Positions 4,284-50,065 of a stretch of DNA of 50,065 nt are shown here, in pieces. This DNA is from a virus. Both the position numbers and the translations under genes were made by a program. The first letter of the stretch is position 1. Every line of letters starts with the position of its first letter. A model generated the notes under the pieces. That model saw nothing but the letters and a program-made list of their open reading frames with translations. It was not told the origin of the DNA and searched no databases. Location: positions 1-50,065 of the IMG/VR virus record IMGVR_UViG_3300045988_086121; one strand, written 5' to 3'.

Positions 4284-4763
4284 TTAGTCCATTTCATCTT
4301 TCCAATTCATAAAGTCTTTATGCAGTTTTGCACCGAACTTATCAGAAGAATAGGATTCGTAAAACAATTCAGGTATCGTATTGATTACAATCTTCATGAC
4401 ACCAGTGTCAAGATTCTTTATTTGCTCATCGCTCACTGGAAGCATTATGTAGTGCGTGCCAGCTTCTTTACTACCATATTTACCACCTTTAAGAATTGTT
4501 TGTTGCATTGTTGTTTTGTAAGAGCAATCAGCACCTGATAGCCTTAGAATAGAACCATCGAAGAGTTGAATCTTGATTATTGGGCTTTCTACAAGTCTTT
4601 TCTCGTCATTGTCAGAGAATGAAAGGATAAGAAATTTGTTGCCCTCAAAGCACCATGCCGATAAACTTGCATTCTTGCCTATGTTGTAATAGTTCACTTT
4701 GTTCTGTGCGAACGAACACAAGGCAAGCAAAAGCATTGCAGATAATAAAAAAAACTTTCTCAT
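4284..4763 (-). CDS. Secreted protein (signal peptide), function unknown
   Basis: MRKFFLLSAMLLLALCSFAQNK is an N-terminal signal sequence. Last gene of the repressor-strand operon. Confidence 0.65.
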   Translation of the reverse strand: MRKFFLLSAMLLLALCSFAQNKVNYYNIGKNASLSAWCFEGNKFLILSFSDNDEKRLVESPIIKIQLFDGSILRLSGADCSYKTTMQQTILKGGKYGSKEAGTHYIMLPVSDEQIKNLDTGVMKIVINTIPELFYESYSSDKFGAKLHKDFMNWKDEMD

Positions 4764-4791
4764 AATGTTGTTTGTTATTGATTGATGTTGA

Positions 4792-4896
4792 TTATAAATC
4801 GCTTAACCATTTCTTGCCACTCTTTGTGAAAAGCCACAAGTAGAATCCTATTGCAATGATTGCAGATAGAATGAAACCAAATGCCATGTATTCCAT
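4792..4896 (-). CDS. 34-aa single-pass membrane peptide
   Basis: Manual translation gives MEYMAFGFILSAIIAIGFYLWLFTKSGKKWLSDL. The start lies 2 nt after the stop of the HTH gene. Below the ORF-track size cutoff. Confidence 0.4.
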   Translation of the reverse strand: MEYMAFGFILSAIIAIGFYLWLFTKSGKKWLSDL

Positions 4897-4897
4897 A

Positions 4898-5200
4898 TTA
4901 TAAAGCGAATCGTCCAATACCACTAAGCCCTATTTCTGTTTTTATGCCAATAGCACGGCATATACGCGAGATAGTGCTAAGTGAGCAATCTTTGCCATTT
5001 TCCACACGTGAGATTGCAGTACGACCAATTCCAGAGCGTTCGCTGAGTTGTTGTTGGGTTAATTGTTTCTTTAATCGTGCTTCCTTTATAGCTTCACCCA
5101 TAAGAAATGCGTTTAAATCTGTTTCGTATTGGTCACGTTTCGGAGAGCCTTTCTTACCGATGTACTTATCTTTGATATTTTCTAATGTATACAATTCCAT
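4898..5200 (-). CDS. XRE-family helix-turn-helix protein
   Basis: LKKQLTQQQLSERSGIGRTAISRVENGKDCSLSTISRICRAIG is a typical HTH_3 motif. Confidence 0.8.
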   Translation of the reverse strand: MELYTLENIKDKYIGKKGSPKRDQYETDLNAFLMGEAIKEARLKKQLTQQQLSERSGIGRTAISRVENGKDCSLSTISRICRAIGIKTEIGLSGIGRFAL

Positions 5201-5243
5201 AGTTTTTAAATCAAGATTCTATTTGCAAAGTTACTCATATTAT

Positions 5244-45156: not shown

Positions 45157-46878
45157 GAACAATAGTTTTATTTCGCCATCTTGATATCGAAGCCAAATTT
45201 CTTCTATATCTTCACCATTATTTATTCGATTATAAAGTCCTCTCTTCATAAAACGTTCAGTTAAGTTTGGTTTATCTATCACCAAACGATTGCTTTGTAA
45301 GAGACCATCTTTAATCATATTCCTAAATGCGTTTTTGGGATTGTTCGATATAAATCCTTCATGCTCATACCACTCTCCATCAACGTTCAAATCTGGGCAT
45401 TTACCCTCATATTTAGTGCCGATTAAAGATTTATAATACTTTGAATACTCAAATTCAGGAGGACGCTTCATTTTGGGGGTAAGAATCACTCTTGAACCAT
45501 TCTTTGCAAAATGTTCTGCCACTTGTATTAGTTTATTAAAATCATTGTCAGAATGATTTACAAATTTAGAAATGGCTATAACCCCATCACCCTTGCGATA
45601 TGTAATCTCATCAAGGTTTTTCCAATATCGTTCAAACCAAGCATTTTTTATAGTTCTTATTTGCTTATCAGTTCTCGCTTCATGACGAGCCTTTGCAGCT
45701 GCAAGTATTTTCTCACGGCTTGACATTGATTCTGTCCCTTGCTTCTCCTCCCATCCGAGCAAATTACCTACGACACGTTCGTTATCCTTCACGAAGTAAG
45801 GCAATTTCCCTTTTTCACGCGCCAAGTCCAATTTCTTAGCATTGCGCTCGCACCATTTAGAGAACTTTTCAGGCACGTTTTGTACAAGGTTGGGGGATTT
45901 GTAAGCCTTGTATTCTTTTTCGGGCAGAGAGCGCAAATATTTCCATTCTTCGCTATCTCTATCAATTAGAATTGACGAAGCAGAACACATGCAACGTGGA
46001 TGCCATCCGCGCCACATGAAATCTTTCGGGTAATCGCCAGCAAGCTCATCGCATATATCCTCCTTTGGATGATTGCCCGATAAGCGAATACGTATACCAA
46101 GCACAAACGGCTCACTACTCCACCTTTCACAATTAGCGAAGTTGTAAGCCATGTTTGTTTCGGTAATGGTTAGGCGCAAGGCATTTTGACGCGCAGAGCG
46201 ATAAACCCCAGTACCAACTTTAGCTAAGTCCTCTTTTACGAAATGCACATTCCCTTCTTCGTCCACAACTCGCCTACGCCATTCTATCACATCTTTCTTC
46301 GTGCCATCTGACATAGCCTTCTTGACATGATAGCGTCTGTACATCATATCAGGGTTGTTCAAATGCTGACGTATCTTGCGACCAAGGCTTTCAGCCGATT
46401 CTCCCTTTTTAATGCCATTCTCTATAGCATTAGACATTGCAAGTTCAAACTCAGCTTTTGTCTGTTGTGTGTAATTCCAAACTCTATCAGACAGATTCAG
46501 TCCGTCTGTTCTATCCCTTCTGCTACGTATAAACGCATTAGCAGTCTTATTCCTCCATTCATCAACGGCTTCGCCCTGCATACGTGTATATGCTTCAAAA
46601 GCCTTTTGTTGAGTTATTGTTGAAAGCATAACTGCACGCGTTATCCCTTGCTGAATAAGGGATTGTAACGCTTGCTTATAAGAATCAAGTATAGCTTGCA
46701 CCCTTTCCTTTTCGGTGGGGGTGCAAGCATTTGAAATCTTATAAAGTTCTTCTGGTGTAACTCGTTCCGTTGAAACAATAGTTGCCTTCGTTAACTCATC
46801 TATAACATGGTTGTACAACTTATTGAAATCAGACGAAACGTGCAGAAGTAATTTTATTATGTTCTTTTGAATTGACAT
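45133..46878 (-). CDS. MuF/SPP1 gp7-like head morphogenesis protein with ~280-aa C-terminal extension
   Basis: MuF core ...LRLTITETNMAYNFAN...WRGWHPRCMCS (HPxCxC) ends near aa 300. The extension ends in a domain with VILTPKM...KCPDLNVDGEWYEHEGF. Confidence 0.75.
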   Translation of the reverse strand: MSIQKNIIKLLLHVSSDFNKLYNHVIDELTKATIVSTERVTPEELYKISNACTPTEKERVQAILDSYKQALQSLIQQGITRAVMLSTITQQKAFEAYTRMQGEAVDEWRNKTANAFIRSRRDRTDGLNLSDRVWNYTQQTKAEFELAMSNAIENGIKKGESAESLGRKIRQHLNNPDMMYRRYHVKKAMSDGTKKDVIEWRRRVVDEEGNVHFVKEDLAKVGTGVYRSARQNALRLTITETNMAYNFANCERWSSEPFVLGIRIRLSGNHPKEDICDELAGDYPKDFMWRGWHPRCMCSASSILIDRDSEEWKYLRSLPEKEYKAYKSPNLVQNVPEKFSKWCERNAKKLDLAREKGKLPYFVKDNERVVGNLLGWEEKQGTESMSSREKILAAAKARHEARTDKQIRTIKNAWFERYWKNLDEITYRKGDGVIAISKFVNHSDNDFNKLIQVAEHFAKNGSRVILTPKMKRPPEFEYSKYYKSLIGTKYEGKCPDLNVDGEWYEHEGFISNNPKNAFRNMIKDGLLQSNRLVIDKPNLTERFMKRGLYNRINNGEDIEEIWLRYQDGEIKLLFKKTDGQQ

Positions 46879-46881
46879 ACA

Positions 46882-48330
46882 TTATTCTTCTCCATTTTGC
46901 TCTCCATTGACAGCGGAAGCAAATATGTCTAACTTGGCTTGTGCTGCACTTTCTGCCTGCAACTGCTTAATCGTTTGCTCTGGATTGTTCACAAGGGGGT
47001 TTAGCTTAACACCATCCTCTTGTGACATGGTAGCCTTGCCTTGTGTTGAAAGGTTGATTAGTTGCAGCGTTTCCATCTCATTCTTTGGAATGTACGGAGT
47101 GAAAACTGGCTCAACCTGCAACGAATCCACAATGCGCTGAGGTGTTGCTTTTATTAAGTTCGCAATACCATTCTTTACAATATTAAAGCGTCTTGTAAAC
47201 ATCTCGCCAAATAGCTCAACCTTTGTTTCTGCCTTCAAGTGTGGGTCGGTAAACATTAGTCGAATGGCTGCACCACTTGTATTGTTGCCAAGGGTTTTCA
47301 TGTTTTCAAACGAAACGTCAGGTGTCTGTGTGTACGAGAATATGATGTTCGTAAGATTAGCCACTTCTTGACGCATGCTCTCAGGTGCTGAGTTCCATGA
47401 AACAACCTTCATGTCTGCGCCCTCGCCTTCGCCTTGATATATTCTGCCGACCTCTCCTTTCTCGGCAAAGCCTTTCATCTTGCCTTTGAAGAAGTAAGTT
47501 GGCGCACCAAAGTAATCATTCACATCCCCCCAATTAGAGAGCAATTCTTCAAGTCGCTCAATTACGGGCTGCACTGATTCCCATTCCGTTTCGTCTTGTC
47601 TGTAATACACGACTGGGATTTTCCCAAAGCCATGTGTCTTTGCGTCAAGCAATACAAGGTTCTCGCCATCATTTACATATCTGTATAGCATTGAAGATGT
47701 GTACACATCAAAATGCACAGTTGTATTTCCTAACTCGTCAAGAACATTGTATTTCCGCGCGAAGCCATCCATGCGATGATAATCATCGAAGTGAGGGTAC
47801 AGAATATCACCACGCAATGGAGATAACATCATCACACGAATATCATATCCGCTGTCATCGTCTTTTGGCACCATATACCACAACTCAGCGCATTCACGAC
47901 AACGGAACAAATTACGGGCAAGACGCTTGTCAAAGTAGTTTATTTTGTTGTTTTGGAATACTGATATGGTTTCATTGTACAACTCTTGCAAACTCGCATC
48001 AACAACACCCTTGATGTTATACTTCACTTCTTCGGACAAGAGAAAGCCTACATCGCGCTCGCATATCAATCGTTGAGCAGGAACAGCGATGCGACATCTG
48101 TCAATAAACTTTTTCTTGTAAACTGCATTCCCATTCTCATCCTTTTTATCGGTCTTAACCTTTATAGCCTTCTTCTTGCGCTTGGTTTCATCCATTACAG
48201 CATGAAGCATTGGGTTGTATTCGGCTTCTGTTTCTTCTATTGATTTCTTAAAGCCCTGCTTACGCGATGTTAGCAAGGTGTATATCTGCATCGGGTCGCC
48301 CAATGCCATTATTTCTGTTATAGGTTTCAT
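46882..48330 (-). CDS. Portal protein
   Basis: 482 aa between TerL and MuF, with an acidic C-terminus. Confidence 0.75.
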   Translation of the reverse strand: MKPITEIMALGDPMQIYTLLTSRKQGFKKSIEETEAEYNPMLHAVMDETKRKKKAIKVKTDKKDENGNAVYKKKFIDRCRIAVPAQRLICERDVGFLLSEEVKYNIKGVVDASLQELYNETISVFQNNKINYFDKRLARNLFRCRECAELWYMVPKDDDSGYDIRVMMLSPLRGDILYPHFDDYHRMDGFARKYNVLDELGNTTVHFDVYTSSMLYRYVNDGENLVLLDAKTHGFGKIPVVYYRQDETEWESVQPVIERLEELLSNWGDVNDYFGAPTYFFKGKMKGFAEKGEVGRIYQGEGEGADMKVVSWNSAPESMRQEVANLTNIIFSYTQTPDVSFENMKTLGNNTSGAAIRLMFTDPHLKAETKVELFGEMFTRRFNIVKNGIANLIKATPQRIVDSLQVEPVFTPYIPKNEMETLQLINLSTQGKATMSQEDGVKLNPLVNNPEQTIKQLQAESAAQAKLDIFASAVNGEQNGEE

Positions 48331-48336
48331 TATTTG

Positions 48337-50065
48337 TTACATTAAATCGATAAATTCGTCAGCGTCAAGTCCGTTGCTGTTCTGACCTAATAACTCGTCA
48401 AGAACAACATAGCGTATGCCGTCCATGCAATTATGTACAAGGATGCCATTTGCGTAGTATTCATGAACATCTTCAACTTCTATATCATAGACTTTTTGAA
48501 TGTTTGCGTCTTGCACATGAATACTTTCCAGCACAAATTCTTGAACAGCATTTACTTCTTGAATATTTGTTGATAGTGAAAGTTTTTCCACACCAAATGC
48601 AGACGCGTTCTTCATCATCAACGTGCAATTCTCGTCTGTACTTTGACTTGCAATTATTAGAGCAGAACTTCGCATCTCCTTTCTTTGACTTAAACGATGT
48701 GCCACACTGGATGCAGACGAGGTCTTTAGGCTGAACAAGTTGCGCAATAATCCTTGCATGAATTGAATGCCATTTACGACCAATGTCCGAACGATGCCAC
48801 TTGTTCGCGTAAATGCGAGCATTATCCATGTTTTTACGAGCCTTAGCAAGATATTCTTCATCTTGACAATGTATGCAAGCATGATTTGAAAGATGGTCAT
48901 GTCCGTTAAGCATTTCAAGATTTGATATTTCGTTGTTGTGTGGGTTGTTATCTTTGTGGTGTATGTGATACCCTTTGGGGATTGCGCCATTGTAGTATTC
49001 CCATACAACTCTGTGTAAGCGTTTCGTTCCTCTGGAATAGTATTTTTCGCCCTTGTATAATTTGTAGTCTTTGCCGTTAAATCGTTGTACGTATACAACG
49101 TATCCATCTGAGTTAATTCTTGTACTTGTTTCCATCCTTTTTTGGTTTTGATTCGATGATTCGGTGTACAAATGAGTGTATACACATCTCCTGCTACCGA
49201 TGTTATTGTATATTTGTTTACTTGTTTATTCCCGTTTGCGAAGACCTTTTTCACTCTCCTATATCCTTTCGATGTTAGGACGTATTCACCAACTTGCATT
49301 TGGCTTATCCGTTTTAAACCACATTTAGTAAGAATAAGAGTACTCCCGACAAAGCAGTGATTATAGGCATCGATAGGCTCATTTAACCACTTGCCCTCTT
49401 TGTTCTGTCGGTATGTGTAATTACGGAACTCTTTCTGCACGTTTATACTTTTCCTCGTTACATATATCTTCATTTCCTGCATCTTGTTAATACCAGCCAT
49501 AATTGAACCAGAGAATTTCCGCACGGGGTGTATATCAAGTCCAGCGTTGGCAATCTCATCAATTAGGCGAGGGTCTGCGCTCTCTGAGATAATCTCTACG
49601 TTTTCACCGCATTCTTTATTTGCATCCTTCAGTACGCGTATTATGTCAGCAGCAAGCATGTGCGTCTGGTAGCATACTTCGTCAATCCACAGTGCACAAT
49701 CATTGATGTACACATCCACGATGGCAGTTGGGTCGTTGGTATAACCGAAGTCTATACCTCTGTAGTGATGTTTCTTGTGCCAACGTGGTATCTCGTCTAT
49801 TACCTCTACATTCTCAAATATCAAGCCTTCTACCATTGCTTGCAGCCCAAGACCATAAATGCGCCACAGCGAAGTATTCTTGTATTTAAGGCTTTCGATT
49901 TCATCAATAACCTTTTGTTCCAAGAATGGATTATCTCTGTAAGTTGTGATAAAATGATAAGTCTTAGGCTCTTTATTCAGTGTGCATAGCCAGTGGTCAT
50001 CCGTAAATGAGGGGTTGTAGTCAATGATAGAGAATTTAGTGGTACGCATCTGTAGCTGCTGCCAT
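48337..50065 (-). CDS. terL: Terminase large subunit, C-terminal part (nuclease domain) interrupted by an intein
   Basis: The frame continues upstream of the listed Met (..WQQLQMRTTKFS..) to the window edge and wraps to 142..554. Total 713 aa, or 404 aa after intein removal. Exteins ...EPIDAYNH / CMDGIRYVVLDE. Confidence 0.85.
   Translation of the reverse strand, partial: WQQLQMRTTKFSIIDYNPSFTDDHWLCTLNKEPKTYHFITTYRDNPFLEQKVIDEIESLKYKNTSLWRIYGLGLQAMVEGLIFENVEVIDEIPRWHKKHHYRGIDFGYTNDPTAIVDVYINDCALWIDEVCYQTHMLAADIIRVLKDANKECGENVEIISESADPRLIDEIANAGLDIHPVRKFSGSIMAGINKMQEMKIYVTRKSINVQKEFRNYTYRQNKEGKWLNEPIDAYNHCFVGSTLILTKCGLKRISQMQVGEYVLTSKGYRRVKKVFANGNKQVNKYTITSVAGDVYTLICTPNHRIKTKKGWKQVQELTQMDTLYTYNDLTAKTTNYTRAKNTIPEERNAYTELYGNTTMAQSPKGITYTTKITTHTTTKYQILKCLTDMTIFQIMLAYIVKMKNILLRLVKTWIMLAFTRTSGIVRTLVVNGIQFMQGLLRNLFSLKTSSASSVAHRLSQRKEMRSSALIIASQSTDENCTLMMKNASAFGVEKLSLSTNIQEVNAVQEFVLESIHVQDANIQKVYDIEVEDVHEYYANGILVHNCMDGIRYVVLDELLGQNSNGLDADEFIDLM
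48430..49356 (-). mobile_element. Class-1 Hint intein (309 aa) in TerL
   Basis: Block A CFVGSTLILT. Block B TPNH followed by KKGWKQVQELTQMDTL. Blocks F/G KVYDIEVEDVHEYYANGILVHN. The +1 residue is Cys. Confidence 0.8.
48485..49171 (-). CDS. HNH homing endonuclease encoded in an alternative frame inside the intein
   Basis: INSDGYVVYV...RLHRVVWEYYNGAIPKGYHIHHKDNNPHNNEISNLEMLNGHDH, plus two repeats of C-x2-CG..F...K(F/C)CS..C. The frame is offset by 2 nt from the TerL frame. Confidence 0.75.
   Translation of the reverse strand: MYTESSNQNQKRMETSTRINSDGYVVYVQRFNGKDYKLYKGEKYYSRGTKRLHRVVWEYYNGAIPKGYHIHHKDNNPHNNEISNLEMLNGHDHLSNHACIHCQDEEYLAKARKNMDNARIYANKWHRSDIGRKWHSIHARIIAQLVQPKDLVCIQCGTSFKSKKGDAKFCSNNCKSKYRRELHVDDEERVCIWCGKTFTINKYSRSKCCSRICAGKYSCARRKHSKSL
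49925..50065. repeat. Terminal overlap, second copy (identical to 1..141)
   Basis: See 1..141. Confidence 0.95.

Follow-up and report, generated by a model that had tools for sequence, protein, structure and literature searches.

The terL intein and its nested gene

The stretch of viral DNA analysed here (the window; 50,065 nt, positions 1 to 50,065 of IMG/VR record IMGVR_UViG_3300045988_086121) ends within terL, the gene for the large terminase subunit. The gene is interrupted by an in-frame intein, and a second gene, for an HNH nuclease, lies within the intein on the same strand in a different reading frame. The phage is probably a Bacteroidota siphophage or prophage. The TerL frame is on the minus strand and extends unbroken from the window edge (50064) to the stop codon at 48337..48339; terL runs off the window end, so only a 575-residue fragment of TerL is present. 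The features of the locus are:

49357..50064, minus strand: terL N-extein, the part within the window (end of the ATPase domain and the RNase-H-like nuclease domain); matches Terminase_3 and Terminase_3C; 72-77% identical to intein-less TerL proteins of 396-409 aa
48430..49356, minus strand: class-1 intein of 309 codons; Cys1 at 49354..49356, terminal His-Asn at 48430..48435; matches Intein_splicing; homologous junctions in 59 IMG/VR loci
49081..49356, minus strand: N-terminal splicing subdomain (~92 aa); block A CFVGST; TPNH with Thr at 49165..49167 and His at 49156..49158; predicted local distance difference test score (pLDDT) 64-87; matches 6QAZ
48550..49080, minus strand: TerL-frame read-through linker of 177 codons, the intein-frame reading of the HNH gene; stop-free; no Pfam or PHROG match
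48430..48549, minus strand: C-terminal splicing subdomain (~40 aa) with blocks F and G (VYDIEVEDVHEYYANGILVHN); conserved in alignments A1, A2 and A4; pLDDT up to ~80
48337..48429, minus strand: terL C-extein, with the +1 Cys at 48427..48429 and the DGIRY nuclease motif, 30 codons plus the stop; aligns with ...AIDAIRYVVLEKLLG... of intein-less TerL
48485..49135, minus strand: nested HNH gene, 216 codons plus a TGA stop (48485..48487), in the -1 frame; supported by HNH_3, phrog_15471, the AlphaFold model and I-HmuI (1U3E)
49133..49135, minus strand: probable ATG start of the HNH gene, formed from GGA-TGG (Gly-Trp) of the intein frame after block B; A-rich tract upstream (AATCAAAACCAAAAAAGG)
48905..49021, minus strand: HNH catalytic core (LHR...HIHHKD...NNEISNLE), the Pfam HNH_3 stretch; codon of the candidate general base His60 at 48956..48958
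48533..48715, minus strand: two zinc ribbons (C141, C144, C158, C162; C179, C182, C197, C201), of the form CxxC...C...C; weak treble-clef Pfam matches

Profile searches of both frames, proposed in a preliminary description of the window, gave Hint and HNH matches alike. The TerL frame matches the Pfam families Terminase_3 and Terminase_3C, and Intein_splicing at 44.1 bits (cutoff 35.8). The last match is one stretch, TerL residues 267-545, within which the two Hint halves lie far apart. With a slash at each splice junction, the frame reads ...PIDAYNH/CFVGSTLI...TPNH...VYDIEVEDVHEYYANGILVHN/CMDGIRY. The 927 nt between the junctions carry the class-1 hallmarks in frame with terL: Cys1, a block B TxxH (TPNH), a terminal His-Asn (...GILVHN) and a +1 Cys. 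In an alignment of the window's TerL with 59 homologous host open reading frames (ORFs), Cys1 (C237) and the block B residues T300 and H303 are nearly invariant and N545 is invariant. The closest solved intein to the splicing domain, with both halves covered, is the gp41-1 intein (6QAZ, E 2e-12), a cyanophage-like, naturally split intein of the fractured-gene class (Dassa type).

The insertion is exact. Intein-less TerL proteins of 396-409 aa read ...AYNH/AIDAIRY where the window reads ...AYNH/intein/CMDGIRY, and at the nucleotide level the intein-less site in relative L084 is ...GACGCATATAATCAT/GCCATAGATGCTATTCGT... The insertion point directly precedes the DxxRY nuclease motif. The 309-aa class-1 intein of the preliminary description, placed there just before the conserved Asp of the nuclease domain, thus stands in its coordinates, its motifs and its position. 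The terL frame is contiguous in the window and not divided between two ORFs, as the host gene would be in a fractured gene. Competence for protein splicing may be inferred from the fact that cultured phages such as phiCDHM19 and Highwayman are viable with the intein in this essential gene. A group I intron carrying the HNH ORF was considered as another source of such an insertion and rejected: there is no Rfam match at E <= 0.1 in 46000..50065, and in-frame Hint blocks flank the ORF.

Read at -1 to terL, the sequence is open over 48485..49171; the third frame has 44 stops over the HNH gene. The nested protein matches HNH_3 at 52.8 bits (cutoff 24.8, E 3e-14) and phrog_15471 (E 2e-42). Among 75 HNH homologues, H41, H59, H60, N68 and N72 are invariant and H81 and H85 nearly so, as are the zinc-ribbon cysteines, with C141, C144, C158, C162, C179 and C182 invariant and C197 and C201 nearly invariant. 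The AlphaFold model of the protein has a mean pLDDT of 96.7. From these sequence matches the protein is probably a homing endonuclease (HEN) of the free-standing HNH_3/zinc-ribbon type, with a putative activity in homing. Two early claims are borne out here: that a complete HNH enzyme with a zinc-ribbon tail lies in the other frame, since both Cys4 ribbons are present and the protein is under purifying selection (below), and that the central stretch of the intein frame lacks an endonuclease motif, since that stretch has no domain match and is predicted to be disordered.

Selection and recurrence of the nested layout

The preliminary description proposed that selection keeps the TerL frame open across the HNH gene. 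When the HNH gene was reshuffled synonymously with its protein held fixed, the TerL frame was stop-free in 0.15-0.5% of trials, with 4-5 stops expected; from the window sequence alone, a stop-free frame by chance is unlikely, though possible. Comparison with homologues gives the same answer, as the TerL-equivalent frame has 1-14 stops in non-nested homologues and 0 in nested ones.

The substitutions in the overlap show which of the two frames is selected for its product. When 53 unique nested sequences are aligned by codon across the overlap, the HNH frame has a mean amino-acid identity of 0.417, whereas the TerL frame (0.226) is hardly better conserved than the third frame (0.218), which is full of stops. 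TerL-frame-type identity is at the same by-product level in non-nested homologues. In 17 pairs of more than 60% nucleotide identity, substitutions outside the overlap fall mostly at TerL codon position 3 (60% in the N-extein, 51% in the N-terminal Hint part, 61% in the C-terminal Hint part and 50% in the C-extein), whereas in the overlap 46% fall at TerL position 2, the wobble position of the HNH frame. The closest pair shows the same pattern: of 6 substitutions in the overlap between the window and L082, 5 leave the HNH protein unchanged but alter the TerL-frame residue, whilst 4/5 in the Hint parts are silent in the TerL frame. Thus, within the overlap selection acts on the HNH protein and the TerL frame is merely held stop-free, because one stop would destroy an essential gene. 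Related phages, with which a comparison had also been proposed, retain both frames and conserve only the HNH frame in the overlap.

The read-through linker is predicted to be disordered. In the AlphaFold model of the 575-aa fragment, linker residues 329-505 have a pLDDT of ~21-26, against 60-93 for the nuclease and Hint parts. A conserved function of the linker was considered and rejected, as it has no Pfam or PHROG family match and its identity equals that of an unselected frame; its seemingly invariant Gly residues arise from invariant Trp codons in the HNH frame. Along the nested gene (48488..49135, minus strand), an ATG followed by A would make TGA in the TerL frame. By the genetic code, therefore, nested HNH genes cannot have Met followed by a codon beginning with A, so that overprinting carries a small cost in the choice of amino acids.

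The same nesting recurs widely. A scan of IMG/VR with the HNH protein, from which 80 loci were listed with relatives at 35-50% identity, gave at least 59 nested loci (59 of the 80 listed), in which the frame +1 to the HNH has no stops and the remaining frame has 2-38. Their host ORFs are 600-1090 aa long and span the whole HNH ORF, being shorter only if a contig end cuts them. With the window included, all 60 host ORFs are terminase large subunits with Hint or intein matches, and none of the 60 has an in-frame endonuclease domain. The junctions are homologous across nested loci: ...H/C...(H/S)N/C(x)D..RY, where the slash within brackets separates alternatives. A scan of GTDB species genomes, again with 80 loci listed, gave at least 35 nested loci (35 of the 80 listed), always in the -1 frame and always in terL. 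The closest nested carriers among those listed are Bacteroides and Prevotella (51-55% identity in the HNH); further carriers are Corynebacterium, Frankia, Nocardiopsis, and myxobacterial, Nitrospirae, Chloroflexi and Omnitrophota metagenome-assembled genomes (MAGs), and several nested loci lie in MAGs labelled archaeal. In cultured phages a nested HNH is present, unannotated, inside terL of Clostridium phage phiCDHM19 (gp2) and Acinetobacter phage Highwayman, and an HNH match lies under the terL annotation of Tetrasphaera phage TJE1. A nucleotide search of GenBank phages gave a single partial match, MT838676.

This recurrence bears on whether the layout is an artefact, with compensating indels hiding an in-frame HNH, or a relic, with a dead HNH pseudogene in what is effectively a mini-intein. 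The reshuffling probability is not astronomically small, and Clostridium phage phi CD119 carries a broken version of the gene. However, both frames are retained in L082, an independent metagenome assembly of 96% nucleotide identity, and in ~95 diverged loci; substitutions in the overlap follow the HNH codon phase; and the catalytic and zinc ligands are invariant or nearly so in a protein whose model is very confident. Nor is there an in-frame HNH-intein among 118 word-indexed matches or the best 150 of 61,956 profile matches (268 in all). Long proteins among these listed homologues are limited to a 1662-aa zinc-ribbon repeat protein and a PP-loop-like fusion (L143). An artefact or relic is thus exceedingly improbable and can be regarded as already effectively refuted. 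The observations that had been named as able to overturn the nested arrangement (an HNH in frame with the splicing domains, stops in the TerL frame, missing Hint and HNH matches) were not made, the first of these within the 118 and 150 listed matches. The lack of an in-frame fusion in this set also favours invasion by a free-standing homing endonuclease gene (HEG) over a canonical intein that has become frameshifted.

In phi CD119 itself (L088; NC_007917, 201-2595), terL is annotated in three pieces: ter1, ter2 and a hypothetical ORF3. The third consists of the TerL-frame read-through and the C-terminal intein half (IntC), and the nested HNH frame is truncated at its N-terminus. This is either a decaying copy or the result of errors in an old sequence.

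Translation and mobility

Among close relatives of the window phage, terL exists in several forms. The intein-less relatives (TerL of 396-409 aa, 72-77% identical) keep the same TerS-TerL-portal order with no HNH anywhere in 13 kb. Mini-intein alleles, with TerL of ~530-560 aa, are deletion derivatives of full alleles from which the HNH has been deleted (P0168 compared with P0127), and long-insert alleles of ~705 aa also occur.

Between the window and L082, extein divergence is 7.3% and intein divergence 1.2%; for L031 and L040 the figures are 16-21% in the exteins and 2-8% in the intein parts; and for L012 and L014 they are 33-39% and ~1%, the change in this last pair being abrupt at the C-terminal junction. 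Nearly identical inteins in terL genes that are 33-39% different mean that the element is mobile, and on these divergences the intein is much younger than its host gene. Its distribution is sporadic and mobile, and it recurs across phyla. Within the N-extein of the window, 13 mismatches with L082 cluster in a 60-nt bin at 49585..49644, neighbouring bins having 2-6, which suggests local mosaicism or recombination within terL.

HNH proteins are encoded beside the terminase genes of cos phages (HK97 gp74 type), and the nested HNH could in theory be such a packaging cofactor, its place inside terL ensuring co-expression. The link with terL is certainly close: every one of the ~160 homologous HNH loci examined is joined to the 3' part of the gene, whether nested, between split halves or immediately downstream. 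A passage in PMC3592412 likewise places zinc-ribbon HNH enzymes beside cos sites and terminase genes. However, the syntenic intein-less phages have no such HNH in the 13 kb, which argues against an essential packaging role, and the mini-intein alleles have lost it. The movement of a near-identical intein and HNH unit between diverged terL genes is the behaviour of a selfish mobile element, and the best solved relative of the nuclease is I-HmuI, an intron homing enzyme. A packaging cofactor is therefore unlikely.

The likely start of the HNH is the ATG at 49135. It is found at the homologous position in the closest relatives (L001, L002, L003, L005 and L008). Of the two starts first put forward, 49171 or 49135, the alignment with these relatives favours the ATG and speaks against the TTG at 49171. 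In the window this ATG lies 73 codons after Cys1 and the HNH stop 58 nt before the intein end; among unique nested sequences the ATG lies 218-305 nt after Cys1, just beyond block B, in 48 of 51, and the stop 40-88 nt before the intein end. In the 51 unique nested loci a Shine-Dalgarno (SD)-like motif precedes 29% of nested ATGs but 9% of control ATGs (p = 4e-5), and upstream A content is 0.43 against 0.32 at controls.

The explanation that accounts best for these results, and one we consider highly probable, is that the locus is a mobile, non-canonical intein in terL with a separately translated, out-of-frame HNH, the splicing, translation and cleavage target of which we infer as follows. Ribosomes would translate terL straight through the 309-codon intein, producing Hint halves joined by a disordered linker of ~177 residues; the halves would then associate and splice, releasing a mature TerL of ~400 aa with Cys at the junction. 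The HNH, a protein of ~25 kDa, would most likely be translated separately from the ATG at 49135 by internal initiation on the late mRNA. It could then cut the intein-less terL of co-infecting phages or resident prophages, and repair after cleavage would copy the intein and the HNH gene together.

Several observations sit less easily with this explanation. There is no SD motif before the ATG at 49135 in the window, only the A-rich tract; an SD-less, A-rich leader plausibly fits a Bacteroidota host, and the relatives of the window portal are all Bacteroidota phages. A hydrophobic helix predicted in the TerL-frame linker (residues ~391-418) could hinder folding. The structural similarity of the nested HNH to I-HmuI is weak: 1U3E is the top Foldseek match in the PDB, with a probability of 0.96, but has an E-value of 4.6e-3 and a TM score of ~0.2. 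The TM score is low because the HNH model is extended and multi-domain, and the fold assignment thus rests mainly on sequence profiles, in which the match to I-HmuI has an E-value of 0.003. Finally, canonical slippery heptamers are enriched 2.5-fold across the family near the entry into the HNH frame (1.9% of positions, against 0.75% elsewhere).

This last feature would be expected if the HNH were made by programmed -1 ribosomal frameshifting, as a fusion of the TerL N-terminal part, the N-terminal intein half (IntN) and the HNH. In its favour, all 95+ nested loci have the HNH at precisely -1, and the window has an A6 run (CCAAAAAAGG) shortly before the HNH core. Yet no canonical X XXY YYZ site lies in frame in the window, and across the family about half of the loci lack heptamers, which where present are not at conserved positions. 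Almost every nested ORF retains an ATG of its own, upstream of which SD-like motifs are enriched or the leader is A-rich, and the same ATG-initiated ORFs stand as separate genes in split and free-standing relatives. The constant -1 relation, which may reflect common descent or constraint, is explained more simply by the smaller number of stops to be removed, ~7 in the TerL frame as opposed to ~20-30 in the other. Frameshifting as the source of the HNH is therefore very unlikely, and separate initiation at the nested ATG remains the preferred explanation, although, given the enrichment of heptamers, some frameshift-derived product may also be made.

Known systems and the range of terL layouts

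In each of the 22 non-nested IMG/VR loci, too, the HNH gene is linked to the 3' end of terL, in one of several layouts. In some the intein is split: an ORF for TerL-IntN ends in a stop and is followed by the HNH ORF and then by an ORF for IntC and the 30-aa extein, the start of which overlaps the 3' end of the HNH. These split terL loci are:

L013, 1-1381
L017, 2563-4766
L029, 2410-4694
L032, 2447-4821
L054, 2-2026, and L055, 17-3601

In L080 (2060-4537), a contiguous mini-intein occupies the same terL site and a free-standing HNH lies just after the terL stop, an arrangement that resembles collaborative homing. In L030, L035, L039, L058 and L062-064 terL is intein-less and the HNH gene follows directly. 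A neighbour-joining tree of the HNH proteins has long, unsupported deep branches, which give no basis for the direction of transitions between nested, split and free forms.

Two loci have additional features. In L062 (2805-5231), the 3' end of the HNH gene is overlapped by another HNH_3-like ORF (4521..5231), which differs from it. In L143 (2634-4224), a 300-aa domain with a PP-loop-like SGGSDS motif precedes the HNH of this family in one continuous reading frame, and the ORF downstream of the fusion ends in the IntC block and the terL C-extein, an unusual architecture.

Inteins with endonucleases in another frame or strand are known. Actinophage inteins, some of them in terminases, carry antisense LAGLIDADG or VSR-like HENs and out-of-frame EndoVII-like HENs (bioRxiv 10.1101/2025.01.02.630785), and that study proposes intein invasion by free-standing HENs, with signs of continued transfer. 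The EndoVII-like case is similar to the window in that a contiguous intein has a same-strand HEN in another frame between the splicing blocks, and in that the intein-frame read-out is structureless. It differs in the nuclease, which in the window is an I-HmuI-like HNH_3 protein with two zinc ribbons and no Endonuclease_7 match, and in the hosts, which are Bacteroidota for the window and many phyla for its relatives. The same study calls such architectures rare, whereas the HNH_3/terL family gave at least 59 nested loci in IMG/VR and at least 35 in GTDB.

The cyanobacterial dnaX intein has a LAGLIDADG gene in an alternative frame (+2 ORF), a finding credited to Gorbalenya 1998 in a passage of bioRxiv 10.64898/2026.09.14.751524; Gorbalenya's case is described as antisense in a passage of 10.1101/2025.01.02.630785. 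Phillips, DeSimone and Gogarten (10.64898/2026.09.14.751524) found frame-specific selection on the dnaX intein and called the arrangement a rarity. There, too, the HEN is overprinted, with low dN/dS in the HEN frame and relaxation in the intein frame, and full, mini and intein-free alleles coexist. However, dnaX is a cellular replication gene and its HEN a LAGLIDADG protein in a different frame offset, unlike the HNH in a phage packaging gene of the window, and that study reports no split or free-standing siblings of the same nuclease, such as are found in the HNH_3/terL family.

Dassa et al. 2009 (PMC2677866) reported inteins in two halves separated by a GIY-YIG or Vsr-like gene, one of them in a phage terminase; fractured genes of HNH type were predicted, not observed. 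The split relatives of the window, with an HNH between TerL-IntN and IntC-TerL, have this form. The window itself does not, as its intein is contiguous and its TerL frame stop-free. A hidden, out-of-frame HNH is also present in the DNA methylase gene of phage ShiLan (Arsenault et al. 2025, PMC11855218). As in the window, the HNH lies in an alternative frame of a stop-free host gene, and the mode of translation is a question shared by the two; for ShiLan there is evidence of homing. ShiLan, however, has no splicing domains and the read-through stays in the mature protein, whereas in the window Hint blocks flank the HNH and the read-through is expected to be spliced out. I-HmuI (PDB 1U3E), encoded by a group I intron of Bacillus phage SPO1, shares with the window protein an N-terminal beta region and the HNH core, but only the first ~95 residues align (E 0.003) and the two zinc ribbons in the C-terminal half of the window protein are left unaligned.

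The out-of-frame arrangement, which the preliminary description did not recognise as known, has therefore already been described in general form (10.1101/2025.01.02.630785, 10.64898/2026.09.14.751524), though not for HNH_3. Our literature search brought up neither an out-of-frame HNH_3 gene inside an intein nor a family of such breadth. What is new here is the HNH_3 nuclease family, the hosts and the very wide distribution.

It is quite possible, if not yet probable, that the -1 HNH_3/terL intein is the most widespread overprinted homing endonuclease found so far and that it preserves every stage of intein evolution. Its breadth would extend over many bacterial phyla, MAGs labelled archaeal, and cultured Clostridioides, Acinetobacter and Tetrasphaera phages. 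The stages would be a free HEG 3' of terL, a mini-intein with a downstream HEG, an uninterrupted intein with the HEG nested out of frame, an intein whose split halves flank the HEG, and mini-inteins left by HEG deletion. On this view, out-of-frame nested inteins would have to be regarded as common; recent papers call the architecture rare, but the present data suggest that it is common in terminase genes. Nested inteins could also be direct precursors of natural split inteins, because it would take just one nonsense mutation in the unselected linker to break the gene in two. As a natural series linking free-standing HEGs, bifunctional inteins and split inteins, the family supports a model in which the splicing domain comes first and the nuclease invades later. 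The presence of the arrangement in cultured phages makes this invasion model directly testable.

Gene callers and GenBank records miss the nested nuclease, as in terL of phiCDHM19 and Highwayman, so that counts of homing endonucleases, and of full inteins as distinct from mini-inteins, are too low. It seems that a Hint domain can accommodate, where the endonuclease is normally inserted, ~180 residues of what is essentially random polypeptide not under selection, a tolerance useful in intein engineering.

A further observation concerns intein-less relatives of the window phage. Just upstream of TerS, L084 and L086 (3405-5559) carry a cluster of QueC, PTPS, radical-SAM and GTP cyclohydrolase I genes that is absent from L085; these are 7-deazaguanine-type DNA modification genes.

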